A DNA stretch of 64,000 nt, taken from positions 25,221-89,220 of the forward strand of contig CAMFNB010000001.1 of NCBI GenBank assembly GCA_945965275.1, read 5' to 3'. The notes beneath the pieces were generated by a model. It saw only the letters and a program-made list of their open reading frames with translations. It was not told the origin of the DNA and did not search any database. The position numbers and the translations under genes are program-made. This DNA comes from an uncultured Clostridia bacterium (GTDB taxonomy: Bacteria > Bacillota > Clostridia > UBA1212 > SIG427). Positions 4,040 through 40,377 of this stretch are shown piece after piece. The first letter of the stretch is position 1. Every line of letters begins with the position of its first letter.

Positions 4040-5188
4040 CTAATTTTCCTGATCATACGGAACGGCTCTGCCTTCCTTCATATCCTCTTCCGCCTGACGA
4101 ATCATATCCGGCAAGTCCTCATTAAACTGCAGCACATAAGAAAGATAATTTCGGAATTTCTCATTCATCTCCGTCGGTTTGTATATGCATATATACGGAT
4201 AATGCTGAAGTACAAATCTCGCAACCGCATCCTCTGTTGATTTGAATGTTATCTCCAGCGGGTGTGTTGCCATAAGTTGTCTCATAACACCGAGATTAAG
4301 TCCCCCTGTGTAAAACAGCCTGTCTTCGGTGGGAAGCTTCGGTAACTTCTTAATCTTTATGTCCTCTCCGAATTCCTGAATAACGTCATTCAGTTCCTCT
4401 TCCCCGCATACAATGGTGAACTCCTTCGGATTACCGTAAAAATATCCCACCATCATAATTCTGTTTGAAAGACTTGCCCTCGGGTCCTCCATGTCTTTCG
4501 AAATAAGATTTCTCTTTTTCTCGGCATCTGCCTCCTTCTCGATTTTTATATTTCGTATCATGCTTGCTCTGAAACCCTGTGTCTCAAAGTACGTTTTTTC
4601 TTCATCCAGAGCCCGGCCGCCGATCAGGATATAGTCATGGTCTGTCAAAACAAGCTGTATCGGAGTAAGTGTATAATCGGCGCCGTGAACCAGCTTCTTA
4701 TTTACGTCATATTTCATATATTCAAAGCTGATTTGCTTTTTCTCCTCAATCGCTTCGTTGATGATTTCAATGTTATTGAATATGTCTTTGCAGTCTGTCT
4801 TTCTCCAGTCTGCAGGTGTGTGCACATTTTTTGTGCTGGTAAAAAACTTCTTTGTCGAAAGTCCGGCAATCTTCTTCACCAGTTCGTCCGTGTATTTTTT
4901 AGAAATTGATTTATTGGAAATTACGCTGTCCGCAAGCACTCTCAGTTCGCCGTCATCGAAGGTACGCTCTGCAAGCCAACTGCCCTTACTGTCGTTTCTT
5001 ATGTCATATCCGGCTTCTTTGAGCAATGAAAGATTTGCGGAAATTGCTTTTCTTTCAATTTCAATTCCGTACCTGTCAAAAAGAATCTCGGAAAGTTCAC
5101 TCTGCTTTATGTGTCTGTCTGCATCTGATTCTTCTTCCAGAATTCTCAAAATTCTCAGAAGTGCCAGTTTCTTAGGTTCTGCGGGCAT
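4040..5188 (-). CDS. wHTH-WYL domain transcriptional regulator (BrxR/CapW-like architecture)
   Basis: N-terminal HTH (KKLALLRILRILEE...ERKAISANLSLLKEAGYDI) and central WYL-like segment (KQISFEYMKY...YTLTPIQLVLTDHDYILIG). Confidence 0.7.
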   Translation of the reverse strand: MPAEPKKLALLRILRILEEESDADRHIKQSELSEILFDRYGIEIERKAISANLSLLKEAGYDIRNDSKGSWLAERTFDDGELRVLADSVISNKSISKKYTDELVKKIAGLSTKKFFTSTKNVHTPADWRKTDCKDIFNNIEIINEAIEEKKQISFEYMKYDVNKKLVHGADYTLTPIQLVLTDHDYILIGGRALDEEKTYFETQGFRASMIRNIKIEKEADAEKKRNLISKDMEDPRASLSNRIMMVGYFYGNPKEFTIVCGEEELNDVIQEFGEDIKIKKLPKLPTEDRLFYTGGLNLGVMRQLMATHPLEITFKSTEDAVARFVLQHYPYICIYKPTEMNEKFRNYLSYVLQFNEDLPDMIRQAEEDMKEGRAVPYDQEN

Positions 5189-5279
5189 ACGATCAACTCC
5201 TTTTCTTTATTGAACAATAAAGTCCTTATATTGTCAACAAAATAATCAGGATACGCATAGCACGTCCTGCCTGTTTTTA

Positions 5280-6035
5280 TCAGTCCTCTATACCTGCCTG
5301 CAGACCGAAATGCGGAAGACTGTTTATGTCTCTGATAAAAACCACATGACCTGCCTGCGGAATAAAATATGTGTTGAACTCAGGATCATTGATTCCGATA
5401 AAGCAAATCATTTTACCGTCCTTTTCAACTGACTTTTCGTAAAATCCGATTTTAACGGTTATATCTTCATCCTTCACATCTTTCGGGAAATTATAGTATT
5501 TCTCAAACTCTATTTTTTCAATCTCACCGGCAACCACATGGTCCCCTCTTTTAGTCTTCAGACTTTCAAAGTCTTCTTCCATAACAATCTCATTTAAGAA
5601 AGCCGTTACTTTGCATTCACCGACAATGTCCCCGGCCATTCCTTTGTAATTCACAATCGGCGCCTTGAAGAATATTTGACAAACCTCTTCTCCAGCCGGG
5701 CAGCAGCTCTCTTTTACCGCATCTCTGTATTCGCCGCAATGGCGGCATTTCTGCAACATGAATCCGCTCTCACTGATTTCTCTGTTTTTGAATTTCCATT
5801 TGCAGTCCCTTGCAGTCATCCATTCATGTCCGTATATTTCACATTCTCTTTTGATTCGCGCCTTCTTTTGTTCATAAGTTTCATTTACGGTTTCCGGCAC
5901 CGGTTTTTTCTGCGGTCTTGTTACGGCATTCACAACAGCATTTGTCAATGCATTTTCCACGAGACGTGATCCGTCAATTCTTCCGCTCATTGCCTGATTT
6001 TTTAATTCATCCAAAACACTTCCCATGTTTGTCAC
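5280..6035 (-). CDS. uncharacterized Cys-rich protein (possible zinc ribbon CxxxxHEW...CRHCGE...CC)
   Basis: ORF abutting upstream membrane-protein gene (stop/start 6037/6035); multiple Cys/His clusters. Confidence 0.5.
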   Translation of the reverse strand: MTNMGSVLDELKNQAMSGRIDGSRLVENALTNAVVNAVTRPQKKPVPETVNETYEQKKARIKRECEIYGHEWMTARDCKWKFKNREISESGFMLQKCRHCGEYRDAVKESCCPAGEEVCQIFFKAPIVNYKGMAGDIVGECKVTAFLNEIVMEEDFESLKTKRGDHVVAGEIEKIEFEKYYNFPKDVKDEDITVKIGFYEKSVEKDGKMICFIGINDPEFNTYFIPQAGHVVFIRDINSLPHFGLQAGIED

Positions 6036-6036
6036 C

Positions 6037-6921
6037 TCACATAATTTCGTTATTCATAAAACGCTGTTCTGCTTCAAAAAGGTTAAGCGCTTCTTTGAGC
6101 GAATCAGCTCTTCCGTTTTTAAGATACTCTTTAAGTTTCATCACCGTTTCGGTACGTTTGTATTTCTCTGCTATGAAATCCTGCTTCTCCAGTTCTTCCC
6201 CGAGTGCACTTACTGCATCAAGACTGTCGGAAATCATCTTGTCAACAAATGCTATGTTTTCTTTGTACTTTTCGTTGTGCATTGCCTCAATCTCGGCACA
6301 TCTCTTTTCAAATTTTGCATTTGCTTCCTCAAGCTGAGTCGGAAGAGCCCCTGCAATCTTTTTCATTTCTTCTGTGATTGCATTTCTTTTTGTGTTAAGA
6401 GCAGCAATATCCATTTGATATTTTTTTATGTGCTTCGGCAATTCAACTTCGTTGAATTTTTTGGTGTTGTCGAATTGCTTTTTGTCTTCCGTATATCTTC
6501 CGAGCTTCGGATGTGTAACTGCACATATTACAATTACACCTATTGCAAGCACAACTCCCATAAAGCCCAAAAAGACAGCGCTTTGCGTGGCTGCCGCAAT
6601 GAATATAAAAAGAAAAGCCTGTGCTGCCATAATTCCCGCAGCGACATTCCAGCTCTTTATCGACGGGGGCAGCTTCGGTTCCGGGAAATAGAATCTCTGC
6701 GGAAGCGGCGGATTCTTTATGCTGTCAAGCTCGTCCTCAAGCTTTTGGATGCTGTTCTCATATTCCTGTAAAACAATGTCTCTCTCATCATTGTTCGGTG
6801 CATTAAACTTGAGCTGAACGCTTCTGTCTAACGACATATTCAAATTCTGATATGCTTCATCACTTTTTTTACAGATTTCATAAAGACCGTCAAGTTTTTG
6901 TAGCAATTCGTCTTTTTCCAT
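6037..6921 (-). CDS. membrane protein with two central TM helices flanked by coiled-coil regions
   Basis: Hydrophobic stretch AAGIMAAQAFLFIFIAAATQSAVFLGFMGVVLAIGVIVICAV; heptad-rich flanks; 15 nt downstream of WYL paralog. Confidence 0.5.
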   Translation of the reverse strand: MEKDELLQKLDGLYEICKKSDEAYQNLNMSLDRSVQLKFNAPNNDERDIVLQEYENSIQKLEDELDSIKNPPLPQRFYFPEPKLPPSIKSWNVAAGIMAAQAFLFIFIAAATQSAVFLGFMGVVLAIGVIVICAVTHPKLGRYTEDKKQFDNTKKFNEVELPKHIKKYQMDIAALNTKRNAITEEMKKIAGALPTQLEEANAKFEKRCAEIEAMHNEKYKENIAFVDKMISDSLDAVSALGEELEKQDFIAEKYKRTETVMKLKEYLKNGRADSLKEALNLFEAEQRFMNNEIM

Positions 6922-6936
6922 ATTTGTTCTCCTGTT

Positions 6937-8067
6937 TTATTTTTCTTTTTCTTCCGCTTCTTCCACAAGTTCGGGCAAATATGCGTGAAGCTCATAAAGA
7001 AGTCTGATGTCTTCCATTAAATTGTTTTTCAGTTCTTCGGGTTTCATAATGCAGACCAAAGGATACCTTCTGAGCACAAAAGATTTTGCTGCGTATCTTG
7101 TTGCCTTAAAGCTGATTTTAATTGCTGACTCTGCAAGCAGTTCCCTTGAAAGATCCACATTCAGGTCATGCAGTTCAAAAAGCTCTCCCTTCTTATTCAG
7201 GTTTTGAAGCTTTGTAATCTTTATGTCCGTCCCGAAAGCCTCTATGACATCGCCGATTTCCCATGACGGGCAAACGATAGTGATATTTTCAAGTTTATTG
7301 AAAAAGTATGATTCTATCGACGGATGCTCCATTACAAGTTGTCTCGCATCCAAGCCGTCTTTCAGCACATCAACCTGCGACTTGTCAATTGCATTGCGGT
7401 TTTCTTCGGTTGAAATGTCCTGTATGTAACTGAGCTTGAAAATACGGGCCTCATACTCCTTCTTTTTCGTAAGAGAACTCATTGATTCCCTGATTGCAAG
7501 AAGGTAGTAATTCTGCGGAGTCATAATCATCTGCACCGGCGACACAATGTATTCATGCTCCGGCTGAAGCTTTTTATCTACGGTGTATTTCATGTATTTA
7601 AATGAAATCTGCTTTTTCCGTTCTATTGCTTCGCTGATGACTTCTATGTTGAGAAACAGTTCGGGGCTCTCATTCTTTTGCCAGTCAAGTACTGAATGGA
7701 TATGCCGGGTACTCGAATAGAAATTCTTGTTCGCAAGCTTTGCGATTTTTTCCACAAGATCAGCCGTATGCTTTTTTGATATGTACTTACTTGAAAGCAC
7801 ACTGTCTATCAGGAGCCTGAGCTCGGATTTTTCAAAATCACGTGTGACAATGTAGCATCCGGTTCTCGTGGTTTCAATCTCATATCCTGCTTCCTTCAGC
7901 AGAGACAGGTTTGCGGCAATTGCCTTTCTTTCGATTTCGATGCCGTAGTTTTCCTTCAGCTTTTCGGCAATGACCGCCTGCGTAAGCGGACGGTCAATGT
8001 CGCTGTATTCTTTCAGTATCTGCAGTATTCTCAGTAATGCTAATTTTTTGGGTTCTGCTGCTCCCAT
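6937..8067 (-). CDS. wHTH-WYL domain transcriptional regulator, paralog of 4040-5188
   Basis: N-terminus MGAAEPKKLALLRILQILKE...IERKAIAANLSLLKEAGYEI nearly identical in pattern to the other copy; WYL-like KQISFKYMKYTVDKK...YYLLAIRE. Confidence 0.7.
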   Translation of the reverse strand: MGAAEPKKLALLRILQILKEYSDIDRPLTQAVIAEKLKENYGIEIERKAIAANLSLLKEAGYEIETTRTGCYIVTRDFEKSELRLLIDSVLSSKYISKKHTADLVEKIAKLANKNFYSSTRHIHSVLDWQKNESPELFLNIEVISEAIERKKQISFKYMKYTVDKKLQPEHEYIVSPVQMIMTPQNYYLLAIRESMSSLTKKKEYEARIFKLSYIQDISTEENRNAIDKSQVDVLKDGLDARQLVMEHPSIESYFFNKLENITIVCPSWEIGDVIEAFGTDIKITKLQNLNKKGELFELHDLNVDLSRELLAESAIKISFKATRYAAKSFVLRRYPLVCIMKPEELKNNLMEDIRLLYELHAYLPELVEEAEEKEK

Positions 8068-12509: not shown

Positions 12510-13223
12510 TTACTCTTCCGTATACTCATGTGGGCGTTCTTTATAATCTTTAACTTTATACTCACCGATGGTATCATATTTGCTTGCTTTGGTTTCGGTT
12601 GGGGTGTCAGTTTCATTATCTTCACCGAGGATTGCATCGAAGAAGATGCGTTCAAGATATTCATATTTAGAATAGATACCTTGGGAAGCCCAAACGAGAG
12701 CGTTACGAACATAGGCGGAATTTGTTTTGAAAAGTTCGTGTTTAACTTCAAAGCCTAATGATTTTGCAAGAAGTACGGCGAACACAATAACCGTTCTTGT
12801 ATTGCCCTCGCGGAAGGGATGCGTCTGCCAAATACTTGCAATAATACGAACAAGTTTGAAAACTATATCCTTATCATTATCGCCGTTTTTTTTGAGTTTA
12901 GCGATTTCTTTCATTGTTTCATTCAGTTGCTTCTTTATTTCTTTAGGATAAGCATAACGAACAGTATCACCGCCAAGAACATCTTCGTATTTAACCATTT
13001 GTATAGTGCGGAATTCTCCTGCCCAATCAAATATTTGGCCAAATATATTTCTATGAATATCGCACAATGTCTCTGTATTGAATTTTTCATATTTTTGCTC
13101 GTAAATCGCAGACATAGCAAGATTAGTTATATCAGCCTCGGCTTTACGAAGCAATTCTGCATCTTTAATTTCGGCTCTGTTTTTTAACACCGAAACATCA
13201 TCATATAAATAAGGATCTCTCAT
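12510..13223 (-). CDS. Fic family protein (short Fic, E. coli Fic-like N-terminus RDPYLY)
   Basis: Fic motif variant HPFREGNTR (canonical HPFx[DE]GNGRxxR); N-terminus MRDPYLYDDVSVLKNR like E. coli Fic. Confidence 0.8.
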   Translation of the reverse strand: MRDPYLYDDVSVLKNRAEIKDAELLRKAEADITNLAMSAIYEQKYEKFNTETLCDIHRNIFGQIFDWAGEFRTIQMVKYEDVLGGDTVRYAYPKEIKKQLNETMKEIAKLKKNGDNDKDIVFKLVRIIASIWQTHPFREGNTRTVIVFAVLLAKSLGFEVKHELFKTNSAYVRNALVWASQGIYSKYEYLERIFFDAILGEDNETDTPTETKASKYDTIGEYKVKDYKERPHEYTEE

Positions 13224-13750
13224 TATCTTATCTCCACAGGAAAGCCATATCTTTTTAAGGTGTTTTCAAACACAGATAAAAATGTCTGTGTTCCATTCTT
13301 CCATGCATCAATTTCCGCACCAGTTTCTTTGCTTACAGGAACTCCTTCTATTGCATTCATTGCATAAGCAAATGACGAACAAGTTTCTTTCTCTTTCAAA
13401 GATAAGGAGTCCATTCCTGAGCTTAGTTTATACATTGTCAGATGACAGTATAAGTTTTTATCAATCAACTTTGCAGCTTGCTCAAGTTGCAATAATCTAT
13501 TTTTTATTTCAGATAATTCTTCAATTATTATTTTTCGCTTTTCGATTTTGTTTAAAATTTCTCCGAGTTCATCGCACCTTAAATACGAACTAACTATCTT
13601 GGCTCCATCGCGTCTTTGGAGATAATACTGTGTATTACCTTTAATTACTTTTTTAGAAATATAGCCAACAGGCAAAGAGAGTATTTCTTCCTCTAATTGT
13701 TGCTTTTTATTGATAAGCATATGATATTCTTTCGCTACTGACATCATCAT
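13223..13750 (-). CDS. Fic-partner protein (Fic_N / antitoxin-like, AIEG helix), translationally coupled to Fic
   Basis: Stop TAA overlaps Fic ATG (TAATG); GGAGG RBS before internal Met (MMMSV...); motif AMNAIEGV resembles the SxAIEGN inhibitory-helix motif. Confidence 0.5.
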   Translation of the reverse strand: MMMSVAKEYHMLINKKQQLEEEILSLPVGYISKKVIKGNTQYYLQRRDGAKIVSSYLRCDELGEILNKIEKRKIIIEELSEIKNRLLQLEQAAKLIDKNLYCHLTMYKLSSGMDSLSLKEKETCSSFAYAMNAIEGVPVSKETGAEIDAWKNGTQTFLSVFENTLKRYGFPVEIR

Positions 13751-14054
13751 ACCTATACCTCCATTTATCATTATTAATATTATATTACCAATTAACCTAC
13801 AAGTCAATATGTTTTAACTGTTCTGTAGGTTATCCAATCTCAGTTAAAATATTCGTCAAAAACAAAAAAACAAATAAAAATATCCGGATTTAGTAATGCA
13901 CTAAACCCGGCCATTTTTAATTAAGCATATATTAATTCTGTATATAACTTTATTTGCACTTAGTTTGATATTATTCTTTCCGCAAACCCATTCCAATTGA
14001 TTTTCTGCCTTGAGTTGTTCGGTGATGCTTTGCTTTTGCTTTTTACCGATAAAA

Positions 14055-15362: not shown

Positions 15363-15584
15363 GAATCTTTCACTCCCTTTTTATTTTCTCTCTGATTTTG
15401 TTTAAATTAAATAAACACGATGCACTTTAGTGAAATAAAGTTAAGAATTATTTTACCATAAAAGTGCTGAGAAAAAAAGACAGGAAAAAGAAAAACCGAC
15501 ATCTGCAGGCAGCAAATGCCGGTCCTCCCGGAGCCTAAAAGAAAGGTGCAAAAACGGCTCCTGTCAAATAAGAAAGGGGTAAAA

Positions 15585-16478
15585 CTATGACCGTAGTCTC
15601 TTTTGTATTTCACTGACTCGTGCCTCTTCGACAGCAGTCAGCTTGTTCGTATAAGGGCTGTAATCCAAATGGTAATAACTTGTGGTTATTTCATCACCGA
15701 TCTCTTCGTCCGGATAAACCAGCCATCCCTCTAAACACATGTCGGAATTACAGCCGAGTTTTGTGTATTCATCTTTTTCTTCTTTTGTAAGTATCGGTTT
15801 GCCTTTTACGACAAACATGGATTCCTTCATGCCTGCCAGCCAGATAAGATCTCCCGGCTTGTAAGCCGTGGGAAAATCAAACCACATATTCCAAAAGGAT
15901 TCTCTGTAACTTTCAGTATCGCTGTCATATGTGTGGGTGTTTATCAGCCTATTTTCTCTGTCAAATACGAGCTGACCGATTGGCCTTTTATCAGGCTTCA
16001 TCTTATATATCATAAGTTCGTCTTTTTTTCTGTCTTTTTCAAACTCCATTGCTTTTTCAAATGAAGTGAACACACAGCAGCTTGCGGAAGTTGTGTAAAC
16101 ATACTCGGGGTCAAATCGACAAAACTCTTTTATGTCTTCGTTGATGCTTCGCATATATGCCTTCAGAAATTCAAATACCGTTCGCTTTCCTGTCACAGCT
16201 GCAAGCGGAGGCATGACTTCATCAGAAAGAGTATCCATAAGTTCAGCCCAGGCATCAAATCTTTCCTGCAGAGTAAGACCCTGTGCATGCCGAATAAGGT
16301 AAACAGCCTCAAGTGTGCTGAAGTCATAATTCACACAGCTCTCATAGTATGTACGTATATACGGAATGTTGATGTATTTAATTAAACTCTTTTTAAATTC
16401 GGAAATACTTATTGCGTCTTTCATAATAGGTTGCCGGGGACCCCTGATTGGAGGTTGCGGGATCCCCGCCTTTCTCAT
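15585..16478 (-). CDS. hypothetical protein, third gene of AAA+ operon
   Basis: ATG overlaps stop of upstream AAA+ gene (TGATG coupling). Confidence 0.5.
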   Translation of the reverse strand: MRKAGIPQPPIRGPRQPIMKDAISISEFKKSLIKYINIPYIRTYYESCVNYDFSTLEAVYLIRHAQGLTLQERFDAWAELMDTLSDEVMPPLAAVTGKRTVFEFLKAYMRSINEDIKEFCRFDPEYVYTTSASCCVFTSFEKAMEFEKDRKKDELMIYKMKPDKRPIGQLVFDRENRLINTHTYDSDTESYRESFWNMWFDFPTAYKPGDLIWLAGMKESMFVVKGKPILTKEEKDEYTKLGCNSDMCLEGWLVYPDEEIGDEITTSYYHLDYSPYTNKLTAVEEARVSEIQKRLRS

Positions 16479-18496
16479 CAGCAGAAGCCGATGCTCTTTC
16501 TGTTGTTACCGCATCCGATTACCGGTGCTTCAATATCCACCGCACGAATTGTTTTCACATCTTCGTCAGTAACGGAATCGTAATCCATATGAACCAATCT
16601 TGTTGCCTGTGCCAGCTTAGCCTTTTCCAAAATATTACGAACATAACGTCCGTTGCCGAAGTCAGTCTGTGCACGTGCCGCTTCAAAAATTCCTGTGAGT
16701 TTTACACAGGCTTCGTCATCAAGTCTGATTGACTTTTTACCGGCCATAAGCTTTGCAATGTCACAAAGGTCTTTGGCTGTGTAATCCTTGAAAGGAATGT
16801 GGAATGCAATTCTTGAACGAAGGCCCGGATTCTTTTGGAGAAACTGTTCCATCTTGTCAGGGTATCCCGCAAAAATGACAACAACGTCATTTCTGTGATT
16901 TTCCATTTCCTGAACAATGGTGTTGATAGCCTCGTCACCGAATGAACCGCTTCTGTCGTCGACCAGTGAATACGCCTCATCAATGAAAAGAACTCCGCCT
17001 CTGGCTTCCTTGAATTTCTTTTGAATTGTAGGTGCTGTCCATCCGACATATTTGCCTACAAGGTCACCACGGCCCACCTCAACAATGTGACCATACTCGA
17101 GAATCTTGTTCTCTCTCATAATTCTTGCGAAGAGTCTTGCCACGGTTGTCTTTGCAGTTCCCGGATTACCGGTAAAAATCATATGCATTGCGCCTTCTTC
17201 AGTATCAAGTCCTCTGTCAGCAAACATCTTCTTGGCCTTGAAAAAATCAAGTGCCTGGTTGATGACTTTCTTGGCATCCTCGATACCAATCATATTCATA
17301 AGCTCATCATATGCAGAACCCTTTGCCTGTTCTTTTGCAATTGTTTTCTTTGTGCTTTCAACCATCTTGTATTCAGGATAATATTTGTTCTTGATTTTCA
17401 TATCCTGCCAACGGGTGAAAAGACTGACAAGATCGGGACCGTAATAGTCCTTACCCTCTTCCACAGATTCAAATAATTTCTTGTCCGGTTTGATGTTGTT
17501 TTCTTTCGCAAGATATTTAAGATAATCACGTGCCTTCTCTCCGGACGCAGCTTCCTCCGTAATATGCACAAAGCTGATGTTCGAAAGATATTCGTTGAAG
17601 ATTGACTTGAGATTTGTGCAGGCCTTAGGCAGACAGAGAACGGTAAGAACCCTGTTGCGATTCTTATTCATAAAATTTGCAATCATTTCAACTAATTCTC
17701 TTGATGCGTCTGCAGTGTCATCTTCTGAATCTGCATCATAATCAAACCTGAGTACAACAGTACCGCCCGCGTTGCTTTCGTAAACAGCAGCAAGACCCCT
17801 CTGCGGAATGTTATTATCCTCGTTAACATCAATAAACGCATATCTTTTGTTTTCGATTCTGTTGTTCGCGTGGAGTGCTCTTAAGATATTCTTATATGTT
17901 TCTCTGCGACAGTCTCTGTCGTCCGTTTCAATAATGTAGTGTACGGGATGTCCGACAAAATGTCCTTTTCTTTTTACAGAATAGATTCTTTCAATTTCGG
18001 GAAGCAAAGACTGGTTTGTAAAAAGTCTCTGGGCCGCAAGCTGCAAAGATTCCTTCGAATAATCGTCAATAATGTTCTCAGAATAAGGGAAGCGAGGTCC
18101 GAATCTTCTGTTGATAAGAAAGTCAAGATTAAAGAAATTAATGACCTCATCTTCATCGTCTAAGATTTCCATTCTGTTTGCTCTTCTGAGATTTGCTTCA
18201 GTTGCTTCGAGGAGGATCTCATCCTCTGACTCTGCAAGCAATTCAAGTCCGAGTGCTTTTACATACGAATGAAAAAGCTTCTCCGGTGAAATCTTTGAAC
18301 GAATAATTGCAGTAAACTGTGCTTCGTTATGCTTTGCACCTGTGAGACAGATAAAATCATCAGGCTTGAGTCTGTTATTAAACTCTGCAGTAATATCCGC
18401 AATATCGTGACAGTAAATTCTGAAAGCTTCTCTGTCGTTGTATCTTTTATCCCACTCTTCATTTTTTATAACAGCATTAAATTCAAATAATTTCAT
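16478..18496 (-). CDS. SpoVK/CbxX-CfxQ-type AAA+ ATPase with ~400-aa N-terminal extension of unknown function
   Basis: C-terminal half aligns by eye with B. subtilis SpoVK (FTGNPGTAKTTVARL...GGVLFIDEAYSL...GYPDKMEQFL...GLRSRI...ANGRYVRNI). Confidence 0.8.
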   Translation of the reverse strand: MKLFEFNAVIKNEEWDKRYNDREAFRIYCHDIADITAEFNNRLKPDDFICLTGAKHNEAQFTAIIRSKISPEKLFHSYVKALGLELLAESEDEILLEATEANLRRANRMEILDDEDEVINFFNLDFLINRRFGPRFPYSENIIDDYSKESLQLAAQRLFTNQSLLPEIERIYSVKRKGHFVGHPVHYIIETDDRDCRRETYKNILRALHANNRIENKRYAFIDVNEDNNIPQRGLAAVYESNAGGTVVLRFDYDADSEDDTADASRELVEMIANFMNKNRNRVLTVLCLPKACTNLKSIFNEYLSNISFVHITEEAASGEKARDYLKYLAKENNIKPDKKLFESVEEGKDYYGPDLVSLFTRWQDMKIKNKYYPEYKMVESTKKTIAKEQAKGSAYDELMNMIGIEDAKKVINQALDFFKAKKMFADRGLDTEEGAMHMIFTGNPGTAKTTVARLFARIMRENKILEYGHIVEVGRGDLVGKYVGWTAPTIQKKFKEARGGVLFIDEAYSLVDDRSGSFGDEAINTIVQEMENHRNDVVVIFAGYPDKMEQFLQKNPGLRSRIAFHIPFKDYTAKDLCDIAKLMAGKKSIRLDDEACVKLTGIFEAARAQTDFGNGRYVRNILEKAKLAQATRLVHMDYDSVTDEDVKTIRAVDIEAPVIGCGNNRKSIGFC

Positions 18497-18526
18497 ATAG
18501 TCTTACCTTTCTGTAAAAACTCAGTT

Positions 18527-19051
18527 TCACGCACACTCACCGCTGTAGTATGCTCTGTCATCAGCAATATCTTCTTTAATCAGTTCAATTTTGTTTTCAA
18601 CCCAATCAATAACAGTTCTCTGCAGGGTTGAACCCTCAAACCTTACATAGTTCTTGTTTGCATATTCAGCTTTTACTCTGCCTGCCCTATCAACATAGTC
18701 AAGCGGTATTATGTTATATGCAGCCTTGCCAATGTCACCACAGTAAAGCAATGTTGCCACAGTGCCTTTAATGTCAATAACATCCCAGTCTTCTTCTATA
18801 AAGTTAAGTGGTTGTCCCACTTCAATCATCTCAGCCGTCGAGCCGAGGTCAACCCTGATAACAGGGCGTACGTATTTTCTTGTTGTAACATCTTGTCTGC
18901 TGTCTCTGCAGTCACCGTACTTTCTTACGGGCCCCAAAGAAGGTCTGCACCAAAAATCAATTGCACCGTTTTCCAGAATCTCTTCCGGAAGCTTGTTCTT
19001 TTCTTCAGCAGTTAAAACAGTTATTTCTAAAATAGAATCAAAATTAAACAT
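18527..19051 (-). CDS. hypothetical protein, first gene of AAA+ operon
   Basis: ORF 30 nt upstream of AAA+ gene, same strand. Confidence 0.5.
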   Translation of the reverse strand: MFNFDSILEITVLTAEEKNKLPEEILENGAIDFWCRPSLGPVRKYGDCRDSRQDVTTRKYVRPVIRVDLGSTAEMIEVGQPLNFIEEDWDVIDIKGTVATLLYCGDIGKAAYNIIPLDYVDRAGRVKAEYANKNYVRFEGSTLQRTVIDWVENKIELIKEDIADDRAYYSGECA

Positions 19052-19179
19052 AATCTTTAAGGCCCTTTCTTTATAAATTATTCAATAATTGAACAGGCTT
19101 AATGTATCATTGTATTTGTCCCTGATTAGGGACATTTTCTTCGCTGCCTGTCTTTTTCGAAGAAAATCTTTGTTGTATA

Positions 19180-20700
19180 ATGTTCCCTGTTATGATTCAT
19201 CTTTCCAAATCAAAATTTTTGAATCTTCACCAATGTCCGAAAAGGTATTGGCTTAACGAGAACAGCCCGGAGCTTGCATTTTACGATTCTTCTGAGGAAG
19301 CTCGTTTCGAAGCAGGTAACGAGGTGGGCGATCTCGCCTGCGGTTTGTTTGGTCCTTTTGTAAATGTTGAAGCATTTAAAGAGGACGGTCAAATCGATGT
19401 TCCCGCCATGCTTAAAAGAACGGCTGAAGAAATCGATAAGGGAACTGATGTCATCTGCGAAGCTGCATTCTCATATAAAGGAATGTATTGCGCAGTAGAC
19501 ATACTTCGTCGCGATCCGGAAAACCCGGAGGGCTGGCTGCTTTACGAGGTTAAAAGTTCCACCCACAATGAAAAGGATGTTTACATTGCGGACGTCGCAT
19601 ATCAAAAATATGTTTTGGAACACCTCGGGTTGAGGGTAAATTGTGTTTTTACCGTCTGCATAAATTCAGATTATGTCTTTGACGGTACCATTGATTTGAA
19701 GCAATTCTTCAAGGTTGTTGATGTCACTGATAAGGCACTCGGTATTATGGAAACCATACCGAAAAATCTGGCTGTTGCCGAGGAAATTTCAGGGGCTGAC
19801 ACGGAGCCCGAGATTGATATCGGCAAGCAATGCTTTACGCCTTATGATTGCCCCTTCTGGGAGCACTGCAGTAAAAGCCTGCCGACCCCTTCTGTCTTTG
19901 ACCTCACTCTTATGCCTTTGGAAAGACGAGTCAATTACTATAAGAAAGGTGTCCTTTCATTTGAAGACCTTGCTGCAACCGGGGATTCCTTCAGCGAAAG
20001 ACTAACCCGCCAAGTTGATTATGCCCTTCATGATCAGGGCGCATATATAGATAAAGAAGGTATTCGTTCTTTTTTAAAGACATTGTCTTATCCTCTCTAC
20101 TTTCTGGATTTCGAAACCATGATGCTTCCGGTTCCGAAATATCCGGGCACTAAGCCCTATCAGCAAATACCGTTTCAGTACTCTCTTCACTATATCGAGT
20201 ATGAAGGCGGTCCTTTGATGCACAGGGAATTTCTCGGAGACTCTGTTCACGACCCTCGGCGTGCCATTGCCGAAAGCCTTTGCAGAGACATTCCCGCTGA
20301 CGTTTGTGTTACTGCATACAATATGTCTTTTGAAAGCAGTCGTCTTAAGGAACTTGCCAAAGACTTTCCTGACCTTGCGGAACATTTAATAAGTATCGCT
20401 GCAAACCTCAGGGACTTCATCGTCCCGTTCCGTCAGGGCTTCTATTACAATGCCGCGATGGGAGGTTCATTCTCAATCAAGTCAGTACTTCCGGCTCTTT
20501 TCCCGGATGACCCGTCTCTTGATTATCACAACTTAGAAGGAGTTCATAACGGAAATGAAGCGAAGGAGATTTATCCTCTCATTGCCGATATGTCACCGGC
20601 AGATCAGGAACTGACCCGTAAAAGCCTTCTTAAGTACTGCGAGCTTGACACATACGCAATGGTCAGGGTTTGGCAGGATCTTGAGCGTGTGTCACACTAA
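19180..20700 (+). CDS. DUF2779-like domain protein
   Basis: N-terminal LSKSKFLNLHQCPKRYWL matches the characteristic DUF2779 start (SKSxF..G.QC.KRLWL). Confidence 0.5.
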   Translation: MFPVMIHLSKSKFLNLHQCPKRYWLNENSPELAFYDSSEEARFEAGNEVGDLACGLFGPFVNVEAFKEDGQIDVPAMLKRTAEEIDKGTDVICEAAFSYKGMYCAVDILRRDPENPEGWLLYEVKSSTHNEKDVYIADVAYQKYVLEHLGLRVNCVFTVCINSDYVFDGTIDLKQFFKVVDVTDKALGIMETIPKNLAVAEEISGADTEPEIDIGKQCFTPYDCPFWEHCSKSLPTPSVFDLTLMPLERRVNYYKKGVLSFEDLAATGDSFSERLTRQVDYALHDQGAYIDKEGIRSFLKTLSYPLYFLDFETMMLPVPKYPGTKPYQQIPFQYSLHYIEYEGGPLMHREFLGDSVHDPRRAIAESLCRDIPADVCVTAYNMSFESSRLKELAKDFPDLAEHLISIAANLRDFIVPFRQGFYYNAAMGGSFSIKSVLPALFPDDPSLDYHNLEGVHNGNEAKEIYPLIADMSPADQELTRKSLLKYCELDTYAMVRVWQDLERVSH

Positions 20701-21024
20701 TCAGCTCACATCAGCATCCTCAAACTTAAACTCGTCTTCATAGTAGTAACCCTCTGAAGATTTGTGTATGCCCATACCGAGTTTACTTAAGGACATCAGA
20801 TGTCTTCCAAGCGCTTTTCTTTCAATAACAACCTCAAAAGGCATTTTCGCCAGCCTTCTGATAAGTTCAGCCTGACGCATCGGGTGCTTTTTGTCAGTCT
20901 GTCTCTCTAATATCATATAGATAAAGAGAGGAACATTTGCCTTGCGGCTGTTTGCTTTTTTCTCGGCCGGAGCCTGAGATTTATCAAATTTCTCATAACA
21001 ATCAATCTTAAAAACTTTTGCCAT
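20701..21024 (-). CDS. small winged-HTH protein (likely start MAKVFK; ORF extends to 21111)
   Basis: C-terminal segment RQAELIRRLAKMPFEVVIERKALGRHLMSLSKLG resembles the wHTH of the WYL regulators; AAGAAAGG RBS before Met-30. Confidence 0.4.
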   Translation of the reverse strand: MAKVFKIDCYEKFDKSQAPAEKKANSRKANVPLFIYMILERQTDKKHPMRQAELIRRLAKMPFEVVIERKALGRHLMSLSKLGMGIHKSSEGYYYEDEFKFEDADVS

Positions 21025-21135: not shown

Positions 21136-21957
21136 TCACTTGTAGCAGCAAAAACGTGACACGAACTTTTTCGTAACTTCCAGTTCCTCGCCTTCAAGGT
21201 ACTGAAGTGCCTTCTCTGCAATGTCCTGCGGTATTCCGTAGAATGCTTCAGCCACTGCTCCCGTGATACAGGCAAGTGTGTCGGAGTCTCCTCCCACAGA
21301 TACTGCCGTCTTGATTGAATCTTCGAAATCCGTCGACTCGATGAAAGCAACTAATGCCTGGGGAACTGTTTCCTGACAGGTTTCATTGAACTCATAAGTC
21401 GGTCTGATTTCGGCGATGCTCTTTTTAAAAGCATCGGGGTAGTAATTGTTTTCGATATATAATTTTATTTCTTCTTTGCTGCTGCCTGTACGCGCCAGAT
21501 AAATTGCGGCTGCTGTACATTCAGCTCCTTTAATACCCTCAGGGTGATTGTGAGTCACCTCTGCGGTGAGTCTTCCGATGCGGATCGCATCTTCGAGACT
21601 TTCTGCAGCCCAGCCTGCAGGCGCACATCTCATTGCACTGCCGTTGCCGAAGCTGTTGTATGGCTCCCTTTCTTTATGTAAAAGCCACCGGTAAAAATGT
21701 CCGCCGTATCCGGCGTCCATGTCTGCTCTTCCGAACTTATGCATTGAATCAATAAGTTCTTCCTTAAAAGCAGGCTCATCATCAGTCCCGATTTTCATAA
21801 TTGCGTCTGCCACCGCGATTGTCATCACGGAGTCGTCGGTGCGAAAACAGGCGTCACGCGCAATGTCATCGTTTCCGAATAAATCGAATTCTTTACTTCT
21901 GTGGTTATTCCACTCGAAACGGCTTCCCGCTATATCGCCGATAATTGCACCTAACAT
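21136..21957 (-). CDS. ADP-ribosylglycohydrolase family protein (DraG/ARH-like)
   Basis: N-terminus MLGAIIGDIAGSRFEW and overall pattern typical of ARH family. Confidence 0.85.
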   Translation of the reverse strand: MLGAIIGDIAGSRFEWNNHRSKEFDLFGNDDIARDACFRTDDSVMTIAVADAIMKIGTDDEPAFKEELIDSMHKFGRADMDAGYGGHFYRWLLHKEREPYNSFGNGSAMRCAPAGWAAESLEDAIRIGRLTAEVTHNHPEGIKGAECTAAAIYLARTGSSKEEIKLYIENNYYPDAFKKSIAEIRPTYEFNETCQETVPQALVAFIESTDFEDSIKTAVSVGGDSDTLACITGAVAEAFYGIPQDIAEKALQYLEGEELEVTKKFVSRFCCYK

Positions 21958-22253: not shown

Positions 22254-22895
22254 TTATTTTCTTTCTTCGTAATCCTGCACGATTTTTGCACACCAATCTT
22301 TCTGAATACGTTTGTTGCTTCTTATTTTACCGACGTTTTCCGCAACACAGTCATATAAAACAGCAGTACCGGCCTTATCCGCATGATAGTTAACTGCTCT
22401 GTCCTCGCGGATTCCGAAAGACTTTGCGGTTTCCACTGCATCAATGTTCGCTCCGATGAAAAGGAATTCCCACTTCTTTTTGTCTGTGAGCATTTTGATT
22501 TTCTTTTTCACGTCATCAGAAGAAAACTTTCTGCTGGCATTTTCCATACCGTCGGTTGTGATTACAAACATTGTGTGTGACGGCACATCCTCGGGACGTG
22601 CATATTTGTGAATTGTTTCAATGTGCTCAATGCTCTGACCGATTGCATCGATGAGTGCGGTGCAGCCTCTGACATAATATTCTTTTTCAGTAAGCTTAGG
22701 CACATCATTTAATTTGATTCTGTCGTGAATTGTTTCAACCCGGTCATCAAAGAGTACGGTTGTGATAAAGCACTCGCCCTCTTCTTTTTTCTGTTTCTCA
22801 ACAAGAGAGTTGAATCCTCCGATGGTGTCGGCTTCAAGTCCGCCCATAGATCCGCTTCTGTCTAAAATAAATACAAGTTCTGTGGTGTTGTTCAT
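22254..22895 (-). CDS. von Willebrand factor A (vWA) domain protein
   Basis: MIDAS motif DRSGSMGG at N-terminus, vWA-like fold pattern. Confidence 0.8.
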   Translation of the reverse strand: MNNTTELVFILDRSGSMGGLEADTIGGFNSLVEKQKKEEGECFITTVLFDDRVETIHDRIKLNDVPKLTEKEYYVRGCTALIDAIGQSIEHIETIHKYARPEDVPSHTMFVITTDGMENASRKFSSDDVKKKIKMLTDKKKWEFLFIGANIDAVETAKSFGIREDRAVNYHADKAGTAVLYDCVAENVGKIRSNKRIQKDWCAKIVQDYEERK

Positions 22896-23048: not shown

Positions 23049-23270
23049 ATGGCAATTTCATTACGGCTCAGCGACGAAGATTCAACATTAATAAAAGACT
23101 ACGCAAAGGTTCACGGCATAAGTGTTTCTGAACTTATACGTCAGGCTGTCATGGAAAAAATAGAAGACGAATATGATTTAAAAGCATACGAAAAAGCAAT
23201 GAAAAAATATCAGTCCAATCCGAAGACCTATACTCTGGATGAGGTGGAAAAGGAATTGGGTCTGGTCTGA
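23049..23270 (+). CDS. relB: type II antitoxin, RelB/DinJ (RHH) family
   Basis: 73 aa, AISLRLSDEDSTLIKDYAKVHGISVSELIRQAV; 1-nt overlap with RelE-like gene. Confidence 0.7.
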   Translation: MAISLRLSDEDSTLIKDYAKVHGISVSELIRQAVMEKIEDEYDLKAYEKAMKKYQSNPKTYTLDEVEKELGLV

Positions 23271-23533
23271 TGTTTGTTGTAAAATTTACCTCTGATTGTT
23301 TAAAACAACTGAAAAAACTTGATAAGGGAACTGCCTCACTTATCACAGGATGGATTCGCAAAAATCTGGAAGGAACTGCAAATCCGCGTCAGCACGGCAA
23401 ATCGCTTACCGGCGATAAGTCCGGAAGATGGAGATATCGAATCGGCGATTACAGATTGATTTGTAATATTCAGGACAAAGAGCTGGTTATTTTGGCATTA
23501 AAGGTCGGTCACAGAAAAGATATATATAAGTAA
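23270..23533 (+). CDS. relE: type II toxin, RelE/ParE family
   Basis: 87 aa, WRYRIGDYRLICNIQDKELVILALKVGHRKDIY. Confidence 0.75.
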   Translation: MFVVKFTSDCLKQLKKLDKGTASLITGWIRKNLEGTANPRQHGKSLTGDKSGRWRYRIGDYRLICNIQDKELVILALKVGHRKDIYK

Positions 23534-34152: not shown

Positions 34153-34389
34153 ATGAAGGCAGCAACAGCAACAGAAGTTCAAAACCATTTTGGACAGTAT
34201 TTAAAATACGTCATGGAAGGAAATGAGGTTATGATTATGAAAAACGGAAAAGAAGTGGCTCGTCTTATTTCAAGAGACGCCACCGTATCTTTTCTTACCG
34301 ATGAGCTTCTCGGCGTCATAGACCATGATGTTGATGAGAAAGCAATGAGGGAAGAAAGGATAAGAAAAAAATATGAATGTATTGATTGA
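34153..34389 (+). CDS. type II antitoxin, Phd/YefM-like
   Basis: 78 aa, overlaps downstream PIN gene by 17 nt. Confidence 0.6.
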   Translation: MKAATATEVQNHFGQYLKYVMEGNEVMIMKNGKEVARLISRDATVSFLTDELLGVIDHDVDEKAMREERIRKKYECID

Positions 34390-34786
34390 TACAAATATTG
34401 TTCTTGATGTTCTGCTCTCCCGGGCAGGACTCAAAGAATGTTCTGCAAATATACTTAAATATTGCGAATCAAAAGTTATAAACGGATATATATCTGCTAT
34501 GACGGTTGCGAATATAACAAATATCTTAAGGAAGGATTTAAACAGAGAAAAGGTATTGGTAATACTTTCAAAAATCTTTTGCATTTTTAATGTCGAAGAT
34601 CTGAGGTCAGAAGACTTGCTTAATGCGGCTTCTCTTGATTTCTCTGACTATGAGGCTGCCGTTCAGGCGTCAACTGCGGAGAGGATTAAAGCAGAATATA
34701 TTGTTACGCGAAATCTGAAAGATTACAAAAACAGCACCGTTCCGCCAATTACGCCGGAAGAATTCTTAGAGAGCTTTGTAAAATAA
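34373..34786 (+). CDS. vapC: PIN domain toxin (VapC-like)
   Basis: MNVLIDTNIVLDVL N-terminal PIN signature with acidic residues. Confidence 0.7.
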   Translation: MNVLIDTNIVLDVLLSRAGLKECSANILKYCESKVINGYISAMTVANITNILRKDLNREKVLVILSKIFCIFNVEDLRSEDLLNAASLDFSDYEAAVQASTAERIKAEYIVTRNLKDYKNSTVPPITPEEFLESFVK

Positions 34787-34818
34787 AAAAGCCAAAACTC
34801 ATTTCTGAGCTTTGGCTC

Positions 34819-34909
34819 TGGCGGAAAGTTAGGGATTCGAACCCTAGGTAGGCGCGAACCTACGCCGGTTTTCAAGACCGGTGCCTTAAACCAACTCGAC
34901 CAACTTTCC
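34819..34909 (-). tRNA. tRNA-Ser (anticodon UGA), class II with long variable arm, CCA encoded
   Basis: Reverse complement GGAAAGTTGGTCGAGTTGGTTTAAGGCACCGGTCTTGAAAACCGGCG...GGGTTCGAATCCCTAACTTTCCGCCA; near-identical to E. coli tRNA-Ser(UGA) core; 7-bp acceptor stem GGAAAGT/ACTTTCC. Confidence 0.85.
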
Positions 34910-37248: not shown

Positions 37249-38541
37249 TTATTTCTTCTCAGGAACCAAAACTTCCTTGCCGCCCATGTAAGGACGAAGA
37301 ACTTCGGGAATTGTAACCGTTCCGTCTGCCTGGAGATGGTTCTCTAAGAACGCGATAAGCATTCTCGGAGGAGCAACAACAGTGTTGTTAAGTGTGTGCG
37401 CGAAATATTTCTTCTTATCTGCGCCGTTTACACGAATCTTAAGGCGACGTGCCTGAGCATCGCCGAGGTTAGAGCAGCTTCCTACCTCAAAATATTTCTG
37501 CTGACGAGGAGACCAAGCCTCTACGTCATAAGATTTTACCTTAAGGTCTGCAAGGTCGCCTGAACAGCACTCGATTGTTCTTACCGGAATATCCATTGAT
37601 CTGAAGAGATCAACTGTGTTCTGCCATAATTTGTCGAACCACATCATGCTGTCTTCAGGTTTGCAGACAACAATCATTTCCTGCTTCTCAAACTGATGAA
37701 TTCTGTATACACCACGCTCTTCGATTCCGTGTGCGCCCTTCTCTTTTCTGAAGCACGGGGAATAGCTTGTAAGTGTGAGAGGGAGCATGTCTTCTTCTGT
37801 GATAGTATCAATGAACTTACCGATCATTGAGTGCTCACTTGTACCGATGAGGTAAAGGTCTTCGCCTTCAATCTTGTACATCATTGCGTCCATTTCAGCA
37901 AAGCTCATAACGCCTGTTACAACGTTTGATCTGATCATAAAAGGCGGAATGCAGTATGTGAAGCCTCTGTCAATCATGAAATCTCGTGCGTAAGATATAA
38001 CTGCTGAGTGAAGTCTTGCGATGTCTCCCATGAGATAGTAGAAACCGTTACCGGCAACCCGTCCCGCTGCATCAAGGTCAATACCGTTGAAGCTTTCCAT
38101 GATTTCTCTGTGATAAGGAATTTCATATTCCGGGACTACAGGCTCTCCGTAGCGTGTAATCTCAACGTTCTCGCTGTCATCTCTGCCAACCGGTACTGAC
38201 GGATCAACGATATTCGGGATTTTCATCATTACCTGTAAAAGTTCTTCTTCTACAGCCTTTTCTTCAGCAGTGAGTTCATCTGTTCTCGCACCTTTTTTGG
38301 CAATTTCTGCCTTTAATGCTTCGGCTTCTTCTCTCTTTCCCTGAGCCATGAGTCCGCCGATCTGCTTTGATGCAGCGTTTCTTTCTGCTCTGAGAGCCTC
38401 AACCTCTGATTTGATGGCTCTGTTTCTTTCATCAAGTTCAATTGCCTTATCTACAAGAGGAAGCTTCGCATCCTGAAACTTCTTTTTGATATTTTCTTTT
38501 ACAACATCCGGATTTTCACGGACAAATTTAATGTCTAACAT
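37249..38541 (-). CDS. serS: serine--tRNA ligase
   Basis: N-terminal coiled coil MLDIKFVRENPD..., class II aaRS core. Confidence 0.95.
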   Translation of the reverse strand: MLDIKFVRENPDVVKENIKKKFQDAKLPLVDKAIELDERNRAIKSEVEALRAERNAASKQIGGLMAQGKREEAEALKAEIAKKGARTDELTAEEKAVEEELLQVMMKIPNIVDPSVPVGRDDSENVEITRYGEPVVPEYEIPYHREIMESFNGIDLDAAGRVAGNGFYYLMGDIARLHSAVISYARDFMIDRGFTYCIPPFMIRSNVVTGVMSFAEMDAMMYKIEGEDLYLIGTSEHSMIGKFIDTITEEDMLPLTLTSYSPCFRKEKGAHGIEERGVYRIHQFEKQEMIVVCKPEDSMMWFDKLWQNTVDLFRSMDIPVRTIECCSGDLADLKVKSYDVEAWSPRQQKYFEVGSCSNLGDAQARRLKIRVNGADKKKYFAHTLNNTVVAPPRMLIAFLENHLQADGTVTIPEVLRPYMGGKEVLVPEKK

Positions 38542-38557
38542 TTTTTTACCTTCTCTC

Positions 38558-39475
38558 TTACCCTTTTATCTTACTTAACATATCAATAAGTCTTTCACGT
38601 TCATCTGCGGAATAGTACTCAATAACAATTTTACCCTTACCCTGGTTGTCTTCAAGCTTAACCTTTGTTCCGAGGGATTTCTTCAGGCTCTCCTGCACGG
38701 CTTTTACATCGCCTGCCTTGAAGAAATCATTATCAAACGGAATTGCTTTTGACTTTGAAGTCTTTTTATAATTGTACTTCTTAACAAGCATTTCTGTCTG
38801 ACGAACACTGAGTTGGTTCTTTATAACCTGCTTTGCACAGTCAATTCTGTCTTCTGACTTGGAAAGTCCGAGAATTGTACGTGCGTGGCCTGCTGAAAGC
38901 TCGCCTGAAACAAGATAGGCTCTGATTTCAGCTTCGCAGTTGAGAAGTCTCAGTGAGTTTGCAATTGCCGGACGGCTCTTCTTCATTCTTTCTGCCATCT
39001 CGTCCTGCGTGAGATTGAACTCCTTCATCAGGTTGTTATATGCCTCGGCTTCTTCGATAGGATTGAGATCTTCTCTCTGAATGTTCTCTATTATGGCAAG
39101 CTCCATAACCTCGCGGTTTGTTGCTTCTCTTTCAATTGCCGGTATTTTCTTAAGTCCCGCAACTCTTGCTGCTCTCCATCTTCTTTCGCCGGCAATGATT
39201 TTATATGTTTTGCCCTGTTTAGTGACAATAATAGGCTGAATTAATCCGTATTCTTTAATTGATTCAGCAAGCTCGTCTATCTTCTTTTTATCGAAGGTTT
39301 TTCTGGGCTGGTTGCTTGCAGGCTCAATCTCCGCAATGCTTATCTCTCTTACGCCCTTCTCCTTCTGTTCCTGGCTTATTTGGATTGCCGGTGCCTCTGA
39401 CGGTGCTGCCGCAGGCTTAATCAAGGCTCCGAGGCCTGATCCGAGGCCGCCGTTTCTCTTTGGTTTAGTAGCCAT
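38558..39475 (-). CDS. parB: chromosome partitioning protein ParB (Spo0J)
   Basis: GERRWRAA ParB box, HTH. Confidence 0.9.
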   Translation of the reverse strand: MATKPKRNGGLGSGLGALIKPAAAPSEAPAIQISQEQKEKGVREISIAEIEPASNQPRKTFDKKKIDELAESIKEYGLIQPIIVTKQGKTYKIIAGERRWRAARVAGLKKIPAIEREATNREVMELAIIENIQREDLNPIEEAEAYNNLMKEFNLTQDEMAERMKKSRPAIANSLRLLNCEAEIRAYLVSGELSAGHARTILGLSKSEDRIDCAKQVIKNQLSVRQTEMLVKKYNYKKTSKSKAIPFDNDFFKAGDVKAVQESLKKSLGTKVKLEDNQGKGKIVIEYYSADERERLIDMLSKIKG

Positions 39476-39519
39476 TATGCTCTCTCCTTGTTTGTTTTCT
39501 TCCTATATAAATAGCTCTT

Positions 39520-40290: not shown

Positions 40291-40361
40291 AGCTTCCTTT
40301 CATTTTTCTTTTGTTCTGATGTTTGAATTATATCACAGCATATTTTTAAATACAATGAAAT

Positions 40362-40377
40362 TGTTTCACGTGAAACA
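40362..40377. promoter_or_regulatory. parS site (TGTTTCACGTGAAACA)
   Basis: Perfect 16-bp palindrome matching parS consensus. Confidence 0.85.

Follow-up and report, generated by a model that had tools for sequence, protein, structure and literature searches.

The characterized members of the SpoVK, CbbX, and EccA group of AAA+ ATPases are single-client chaperones that act on RuBisCO, on MurG, or on substrates of type VII secretion systems (T7SS). They have been described as specialized chaperones with few substrates, recruited via variable N-terminal domains, and the clade is recognized by a GY pair in sensor-1, an Asn that precedes the first arginine finger by four residues, and a second arginine (PMC11513918). 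Here we examine a member of this clade in a 64,000-nucleotide stretch of DNA from an uncultured Clostridia bacterium (contig CAMFNB010000001.1; the whole stretch is hereafter the window), where a 672-amino-acid protein, B (16478-18496), is encoded together with the genes A (18527-19051) and C (15585-16478), all on the minus strand. Our analysis finds this known AAA+ clade with a new architecture and in a new, mobile, and conflict-type context.

The active AAA+ module of B, hereafter D2 (residues 397–660; 16517-17308, minus strand), matches PF00004 (6e-17) and the lid family PF17866, AAA_lid_6 (1.2e-16), and the protein ends about 12 residues past this lid. It carries a Walker A motif GNPGTAKT, a Walker B motif DEAY, a pore loop K-[YF]-V-G (K-Y-V-G in the B of the window), the sensor-1 GY, the N556-x3-R560 and R562 residues, and a sensor-2 R617/R620. 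Among 28 family members, G544, Y545, N556, R562, R617, and R620 occur in all 28 and R560 in 26, with K in the other two, and little or no variation is seen in the Walker A and B motifs, in the pore loop, in the arginine fingers, or in sensor-2. Because D2 carries exactly the signatures given for the clade (PMC11513918), B is, by its motifs, a member of the SpoVK-EccA-CbbX clade of classical AAA+ proteins. An earlier, sequence-only reading of this DNA had assigned the C-terminal part of B to the SpoVK/CbxX/EccA type, and the Pfam, NCBIfam, and 3syk matches bear this out.

The closest protein of known structure is CbbX (3syk, 3zuh), which is the best match of residues 400–660 both among PDB sequences (3syk, E 5.7e-57, 41–42% identity, with EccA1 following at 2.5e-43) and in a Foldseek search with the model of B (E 2.5e-21). 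The two proteins share the GNPGT.KT context of Walker A, the GY of sensor-1, and AAA_lid_6, and an aromatic pore loop at the same position, which reads GQYIG in CbbX and GKYVG in B. CbbX differs in being a single module of about 300 amino acids that is encoded with RuBisCO, whereas B has 395 extra N-terminal residues, and there are no RuBisCO genes in its annotated neighborhoods. With the clade of SpoVK, the MurG chaperone of B. subtilis, B similarly shares all the signatures and the possession of an N-terminal domain of its own. However, SpoVK has about 320 amino acids, a short N-terminal domain, and a sporulation context, while B has twice the length, is encoded away from sporulation loci, and spreads with mobile elements.

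The NCBIfam models give B 265.1 bits for SpoVK (TIGR02881), 247.1 for CbbX (TIGR02880), and 225.1 for EccA (TIGR03922, a match that spans only the AAA part), compared with equivalog cut-offs of 422.95, 459.25, and 466.65 bits, respectively. Since every cut-off is missed by 160–240 bits, B is, on these scores, not an ortholog of SpoVK, CbbX, or EccA. That the best family scores nevertheless come from these three models could be taken to mean that B is a housekeeping paralog, acting as a chaperone either in secretion, like EccA, or in sporulation, like SpoVK. We regard this as highly improbable: the scores lie far under the cut-offs, residues 1–393 give no match to a TPR domain in a family scan, no WXG100, EssC, T7SS, sporulation, or RuBisCO families were found among the neighbor families scanned (about 160 loci, many clusters unscanned), and the family occurs patchily, in association with mobile elements, extending to the Negativicutes and to a viral contig. 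The suggestion that B is not an ordinary SpoVK stands, and a sporulation-locus explanation fails, because the relatives of B sit in mobile elements, in a phage contig, and in variable islands with WYL, nuclease, and helicase genes, and not, among the neighbor families scanned, in sporulation loci.

The N-terminal residues of B, about 400, had been called unrecognizable. This remains true at the level of family matches, as residues 1–395, like the whole of A and C, have no match in NCBIfam, PHROGs, PADLOC, or Pfam, the last even when E values as high as 10 are allowed, and a profile of the B N-terminus gave noise only against PDB sequences (best, PknG at 0.4). It no longer holds at the level of structure, where a model and an in-register profile alignment point to a new domain of about 110 amino acids followed by a degenerate AAA-like module. 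The AlphaFold model, built from 28 family members, has a mean predicted local distance difference test score (pLDDT) of 83.5. Residues 1–110 (18167-18496, minus strand) form a new alpha/beta domain in it, with the order strand-helix-strand-strand-helix-strand-helix, a pLDDT of 84–95, and no Pfam or PDB sequence match. By analogy with the variable N-terminal domains of the clade (PMC11513918), this N-domain is a candidate binding site for a substrate or an adaptor.

The degenerate module, hereafter D1 (residues 175–345; 17462-17974, minus strand), is modeled as a five-stranded alpha/beta fold of five strand-helix units at about residues 185–345, and its assignment draws on the model, on Foldseek, and on hhalign, in which D1 and D2 align in register over 171 columns (P 6.8e-4, probability 27%). 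A GHPVHY motif is invariant in D1, an acidic T-D-D-R-D loop takes the place of Walker A, and R-[YF] replaces the D-E of Walker B. Since it has neither the Walker A lysine nor the Walker B acidic pair, D1 is predicted to be unable to bind nucleotide and to be catalytically dead. In a comparison of the window with a related locus, L012, the N-terminal 350 residues of B are 52–70% identical and the AAA module 74–94%. The strictly kept N-domain and GHPVHY surface suggest a single conserved target or partner of B.

In layout, the nearest described proteins are tandem ATPases of the SpoVK family from extended Type III-A CoCoNuT loci; Walker A/B is kept only in their C-terminal module, and they are encoded among VWA genes in a predicted defense setting (PMC11090510). 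B has the same dead-plus-live layout, with VWA-type genes nearby in some loci. The CoCoNuT proteins differ from it in carrying a C-terminal leucine-rich repeat (LRR) and beta-barrel and in lying inside McrBC-type operons (PMC11090510); B is set apart from them by this description, and no McrB or McrC families turned up among its neighbors. The two-ring AAA+ proteins (p97/Cdc48, Drg1/Afg2, NSF, and ClpC) also resemble the layout of N-domain, D1, and D2 that is modeled for B, and Foldseek aligns the B model to p97, Drg1, Rix7, NSF, and ClpC over 560–600 columns (E 1e-12 to 1e-9). However, the identity to the two-ring proteins is 12–17%, the root-mean-square deviation is high because the domains are oriented differently, and the D2 of B belongs to the CbbX clade and not to the Cdc48 clade.

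A search with residues 1–393 alone returned 29 protein clusters, all of 660–681 amino acids and all with the same C-terminal AAA module and lid, of which one is named by its source, as a generic 'AAA family ATPase'. The architecture of B, in which a new N-domain is joined to a predicted dead AAA-like and a live AAA+ module, is that of an unnamed and uncharacterized family, which is widespread in gut Firmicutes. A metagenome scan yielded at least 275 relatives, many from records labeled as human gut, and the index of a public assembly collection lists 53 blocks with the identical protein; 22 contigs with identical B were read, mostly redundant, and the six of them shown share the gene order of the window. 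Distant relatives with the same motifs are found on a chromid of Lachnospira eligens ATCC 27750, on the Selenomonas ruminantium plasmid pSRC1, and on an IMG/VR viral contig, in which B lies past an endolysin gene and beside a DNA methyltransferase gene. Across the family, relatives of B are found in variable islands, in mobilizable elements, and in a phage contig. In L. eligens ATCC 27750 (L164; NC_012780.1 209865-214905), the genes run HTH, ImmA/IrrE, WYL, one unknown gene, and then B. In S. ruminantium TAM6421 (L165; NC_017078.1 256325-263603), B comes after a NERD helicase and before a metallophosphoesterase, one unknown gene, and DUF2779, with WYL also near B.

In the window, A, B, and C are three intact minus-strand open reading frames (ORFs) in the ORF list. 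Gene A, of 174 amino acids and without a known domain, heads the operon and is followed by B after a spacer of 30 nucleotides (nt), with a purine-rich ribosome-binding stretch before each of the two. The stop codon of B and the start codon of C share one base, reading ctgcTGATGagaa (TGATG), and C, a protein of 297 amino acids with the motif MWFDFPTP[FY]..GD, is followed directly on its 3' side by a terminator-like hairpin of 18 pairs with a T-run (15489-15529, minus strand), which closes the operon. The ratio of nonsynonymous to synonymous divergence (dN/dS), taken against orthologs in loci L012 and L163, is 0.14–0.21 for A, 0.14–0.16 for B, and 0.12 for C; at these values, A, B, and C are genuine genes under purifying selection and not chance ORFs. 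The proposal of a three-gene operon with TGATG coupling is thus confirmed by its coordinates, by the overlap, by the 3' hairpin, and by selection. In the most divergent copy of the triad, that of L163, a GC-rich hairpin and then a T-rich stretch lie between A and B (at 950-1070 of L163); this may be an internal attenuator and is absent from the 30-nt spacer of the window.

The conserved unit does not end with A. Divergent from it lies a gene for a 506-amino-acid DUF2779 protein (19180-20700, plus strand; PF11074 at 1e-42), a family predicted to be a Cas4-like PD-(D/E)xK nuclease fused to a 3'-5' exonuclease (PMC13621843, PMC3985635). The same order, divergent DUF2779 and then A-B-C, recurs in three lineages, across which the amino acid identity to the window is 40–90% for A, 58–69% for B, and 47–59% for C, and the one-base overlap of B and C is kept in L012, L013, and L014. 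The DUF2779 protein is 86% identical in L012 and 55% identical in L010, and is also present in L163 and, with B, in Selenomonas. Next to it is a small winged helix-turn-helix (wHTH) protein (20701-21024, minus strand; 107 amino acids from an ATG, or 136 from an upstream TTG), which BLASTP finds to be 34–38% identical to residues 9–83 of the WYL proteins in L007, L009, and L010. It is a homolog of the N-terminal DNA-binding part of the WYL regulators associated with B, of which the window has the wHTH part alone, and is 97% identical in L012, with a dN/dS of 0.04. An ADP-ribosylglycohydrolase of 273 amino acids follows (21136-21957, minus strand; PF03747 at 6e-38), in the same position in L012 and L013.

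The 128-bp intergenic region between DUF2779 and A holds a perfect palindrome, TGTCCCT-GATT-AGGGACA (7+7; 19117-19134), which has one match in the window compared with 0.1 expected and whose half-sites GTCCC/GGGAC are kept in L012. We infer from this a candidate operator, at which the adjacent HTH protein would bind. L012 and L013 show the order ADP-ribosylglycohydrolase, HTH, DUF2779, A-B-C again, while L163, a contig of 3.4 kb whose A is 40% identical to that of the window, shows DUF2779 and A-B-C only. As the order is kept in these loci, the conserved unit is larger than three genes, and the functional unit probably includes DUF2779 and the HTH regulator. When the window is compared with L012, the genes differ widely in their synonymous divergence (HTH 0.32, A 0.34, DUF2779 0.77, B 1.48, C 2.42), indicating that the block 15585-21024 is a recombination mosaic, and every gene compared across the block is under purifying selection.

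To place B in a wider context, genes were called and clustered in 98 loci, and de-replication at 80% identity left nine lineages of B in which the flanking sequence reaches 3 kb or more. Among these, WYL/HTH genes are found in seven, DUF2779 in five, and a C-family gene in five, counts that have no genomic background to set them against, so that enrichment is a matter of judgment. The WYL gene encodes a wHTH-WYL-WCX protein and is often directly next to B, 28–30 nt away; in this, the B loci resemble WYL-regulated defense islands (BrxR/BREX, CapW/CBASS). Further recurrent neighbors are an SNF2/ResIII helicase of about 1,170 amino acids, MoxR with a DUF2201 VWA-metallopeptidase (a pair that lies upstream of B in many loci), a presumably soluble FtsH-like protease, metallophosphoesterases, an ADP-ribosylglycohydrolase, RNA ligases of RtcB or Rnl1 type, and GmrSD; in locus L017, GmrSD genes and the SNF2/ResIII helicase flank B. 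Mobile-element genes also recur, namely relaxase, ParB, ParM-like, serine recombinase, and PcfJ-like genes. Taken as a set, the proteins associated with B correspond to no system in PADLOC, BREX and CBASS included: in PADLOC-DB v2, B has only partial AAA matches (IetA 3e-6, TRIP13 2e-3), A, C, DUF2779, and HTH have none, and the neighbor families have only generic helicase, AAA, or WYL matches.

A 436-amino-acid FtsH-like protein (AAA plus Peptidase_M41) is encoded directly after B in L007 (10070-11380) and L010 (10057-11367); it is about 200 amino acids shorter than typical membrane-anchored FtsH, and its cluster (c43) occurs in 15 loci. This placement is unusual, because the SpoVK-EccA clade is reported to have no peptidase partners (PMC11513918), and the MoxR and VWA-metallopeptidase genes before B in many loci are a second point of difference from that description.

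It had also been proposed that A and C are candidate clients of B, in which case B would be a chaperone dedicated to its flanking proteins. The translational coupling of B and C, the order conserved in three lineages, and the narrow client ranges of characterized clade members (PMC11513918) would all fit such a role. However, B has no fixed neighbor: most of its homologs lack A and also lack an adjacent C, and C-family genes are abundant without B. In addition, the N-domain and GHPVHY are strictly kept though the neighbors differ, which points to a common target encoded elsewhere. We therefore find the client proposal weak and quite unlikely to be correct.

Exhaustive phmmer with A in 1.84 billion representative proteins found A itself, one relative (P0035, 40% identical), and P0036, a low-complexity repeat protein whose match is spurious. 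The P0035 gene lies directly upstream of the 672-amino-acid B homolog of L163, and A is confined to three lineages. With one true relative among 1.84 billion representatives, A appears to be effectively specific to this lineage. A likeness of A to DUF6273-type "WWLRS...VRP" motifs was considered but was backed by no search and was dropped.

For C, as for A, word-indexed searches returned near-identical proteins only, plus one relative of C at 59% identity, and the C family was detected solely through neighborhood clustering of B-seeded loci. A genome scan seeded with C then gave 65 species genomes with 100 copies, often as tandem paralogs, mostly in Clostridia, with some in Erysipelotrichaceae, Spirochaetota, Coriobacteriia, and Negativicutes. 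At only 12 loci in these genomes is there a B gene within 10 kb of a C-family gene. C thus appears, on its occurrence, to be a common accessory protein that is diversifying and is coupled to B in some cases only, which weakens the idea of C as the dedicated client of B. It aligns with the neighbor cluster c53 in hhalign (probability 98%), while no relation was found by hhalign among A, c13, c14, c19, and C. A viral scan for the C family was empty, a C-family profile gave noise only against PDB sequences (Cdc37 at 0.015), and a structure predicted from three C sequences (pLDDT 43) is unusable. The C-seeded loci L099-L162 show long co-oriented arrays of C paralogs, Metallophos, PAD_porph, RtcB, and ADP-ribosylglycohydrolase genes, which also hold DUF2779, WYL, BspA-type LRR, and FtsH-like genes; they span Clostridia, Erysipelotrichaceae, Spirochaetota, and Coriobacteriia, and have the appearance of a mobile toolbox that these groups share.

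These distributions bring in another explanation, in which there is no dedicated triad at all and the co-transcription of A, B, and C in this lineage is a chance grouping of accessory genes independent of one another, with B working alone or with host proteins and C being one of many interchangeable paralogs. The genes beside B do differ between lineages, the C family is mostly found away from B, A is limited to three lineages, and the uneven synonymous divergence of A, B, and C between the window and L012 indicates that the parts have separate histories. Against this stand the order DUF2779, A, B, C, which is kept even where A has fallen to 40% identity, the one-base overlap of B and C, which is kept in three other loci, and the C-family gene in five of nine B lineages. 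On balance we think this explanation improbable, though it has to be reckoned with.

Our preferred interpretation is that A-B-C is the core of a horizontally mobile conflict module made up of the wHTH regulator, the divergent DUF2779 nuclease, and the A-B-C operon, which we hold to be about an even prospect. The conserved engine of such a module would most likely be B, working as a hexameric motor with D1 as a scaffold. The new N-terminal domain would pick the target, and D2 would thread or remodel a specific protein via its K-Y-V-G pore loop. The regulator would hold the divergent promoters off, possibly at the palindrome 19117-19134, until a signal of invading or damaged DNA lifts the repression, as with WYL regulators elsewhere. 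B, perhaps aided by lineage-specific adaptors or clients such as A and C, would then remodel its protein target, and this step may license the DUF2779 nuclease or disable a foreign protein. The earlier suggestion of an undescribed system, either for defense or for secretion and assembly, is retained in its first half, with a conflict-related role as the best reading; for the second half, no secretion-system genes were seen that would back it.

Several observations weigh against this interpretation. The assignment of D1 depends on a structure prediction together with a profile alignment of modest score. De-replication leaves a small sample (9–11 lineages), the enrichment of WYL and DUF2779 is judged without a background rate, and DUF2779 is missing from about half of the B lineages. 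B has no universal partner, the next gene downstream being WYL, c13, c14, c19, a C-family gene, or the FtsH-like protease, and as this gene varies, a fixed complex of B with the nuclease, or of B with A and C, is at most conjectural. No PADLOC model gives more than weak partial AAA matches. Finally, the arrays that carry B also carry RtcB, an ADP-ribosylglycohydrolase, an Rnl1-like ligase accompanied by a PNK-like kinase, and relaxase and ParB, genes typical of the self-protection sets of mobile elements, which agree with counter-defense as well as with defense. Like the metallophosphoesterases and PAD-like enzymes of these arrays, RtcB, the ligase with its kinase, and the ADP-ribosylglycohydrolase can reverse damage done by toxins.

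The last of these points concerns the direction in which the module acts. It could instead be counter-defense or establishment cargo, by which B and its neighbors on conjugative or mobilizable elements and phages neutralize recipient immunity or repair the damage it causes, with B dismantling a host defense complex or refolding damaged proteins. In one well-sampled element type, B opens an array that is divergent from an operon of relaxase, ParB, and ParM-like genes, and in another, PcfJ-like genes and the MoxR and DUF2201 metallopeptidase genes lie directly upstream. Anti-defense genes are known to cluster, co-oriented, in the leading regions of plasmids (PMC11541004), a pattern that these arrays may follow, although their position in a leading region is a guess only. 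However, the copy in the window is chromosomal and origin-proximal, with no relaxase, integrase, or transfer gene among the window ORFs scanned (not every ORF was scanned), and yet the locus is intact and under purifying selection. WYL regulators and GmrSD neighbors are also more typical of defense islands. We regard this reversed direction as a serious but minority possibility.

For the conflict module itself, we lean toward a role against invaders, as anti-phage or anti-plasmid defense, over counter-defense by mobile elements, a direction that we infer from the WYL association, the GmrSD and toxin-antitoxin neighbors, the position of B in the viral contig, and the retention of the locus in the chromosome without transfer genes among the ORFs scanned. 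In a more specific and tentative form, which is doubtful as it stands, the B family would be the motor of a WYL-controlled immune system of gut Firmicutes, an ATP-driven unfoldase that senses or remodels an invader protein and unleashes the Cas4-like/DEDD nuclease DUF2779, with A, C-family proteins, c13, and c14 as interchangeable specificity adaptors. If this immune-motor version were true, the SpoVK-EccA-CbbX clade would gain its first role in defense, and DUF2779 its first function.

The B family would add to its clade an architecture in which a module is duplicated, its first copy is dead, and the N-domain is private, and would open a new arena for it, namely the conflict in which gut bacteria face their mobile elements. 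One recurring neighborhood, moreover, brings together the uncharacterized families DUF2779, C, and the FtsH-like protease. Given that L. eligens ATCC 27750 and S. ruminantium TAM6421 are cultured strains with distant versions of the module, the hypothesis is directly testable, and either a new defense or a new counter-defense mechanism could emerge in Firmicutes that are abundant in the human gut and the rumen.

The accessory and toxin-antitoxin setting proposed for the operon is also seen in the rest of the window, where a ParE/RHH pair and Fic, PIN, and NTP_transf_2 genes are present. A dockerin gene and a G+C content of 41% hint at a Ruminococcus-like Clostridium. A Fic-domain gene (237 amino acids) and an upstream DUF6788-like gene (194 amino acids) at 12510-13807 share one base and resemble a pair of toxin and antitoxin. 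This pair is absent from the otherwise identical contigs L001-L004 and present in L005 and L006, which indicates a recent insertion, and since some contigs with identical B are without it, the island varies between strains. A four-gene block at 4040-8067, in which WYL proteins (6937-8067 and 4040-5188) flank two unknown proteins of 294 and 251 amino acids, may be another accessory module under WYL control, the second in this island; by a comparison of gene sizes, not of aligned sequences, L001 lacks such genes at the corresponding position. On the strand of the module, a 213-amino-acid VWA-like protein (22254-22895; phrog_7371 at 9e-55) is encoded 300 bp upstream of the ADP-ribosylglycohydrolase. 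The ParE/RHH toxin-antitoxin pair lies at 23049-23533 and the PIN-domain gene beside a tRNA-Ser(TGA) at 34373-34909, both of which are signs of an accessory or integration hotspot. Farther along, serS, parB, parA, and gyrB at 37249-46613, together with a change in the sign of the GC skew near 46 kb, place this accessory island near the chromosomal replication origin.

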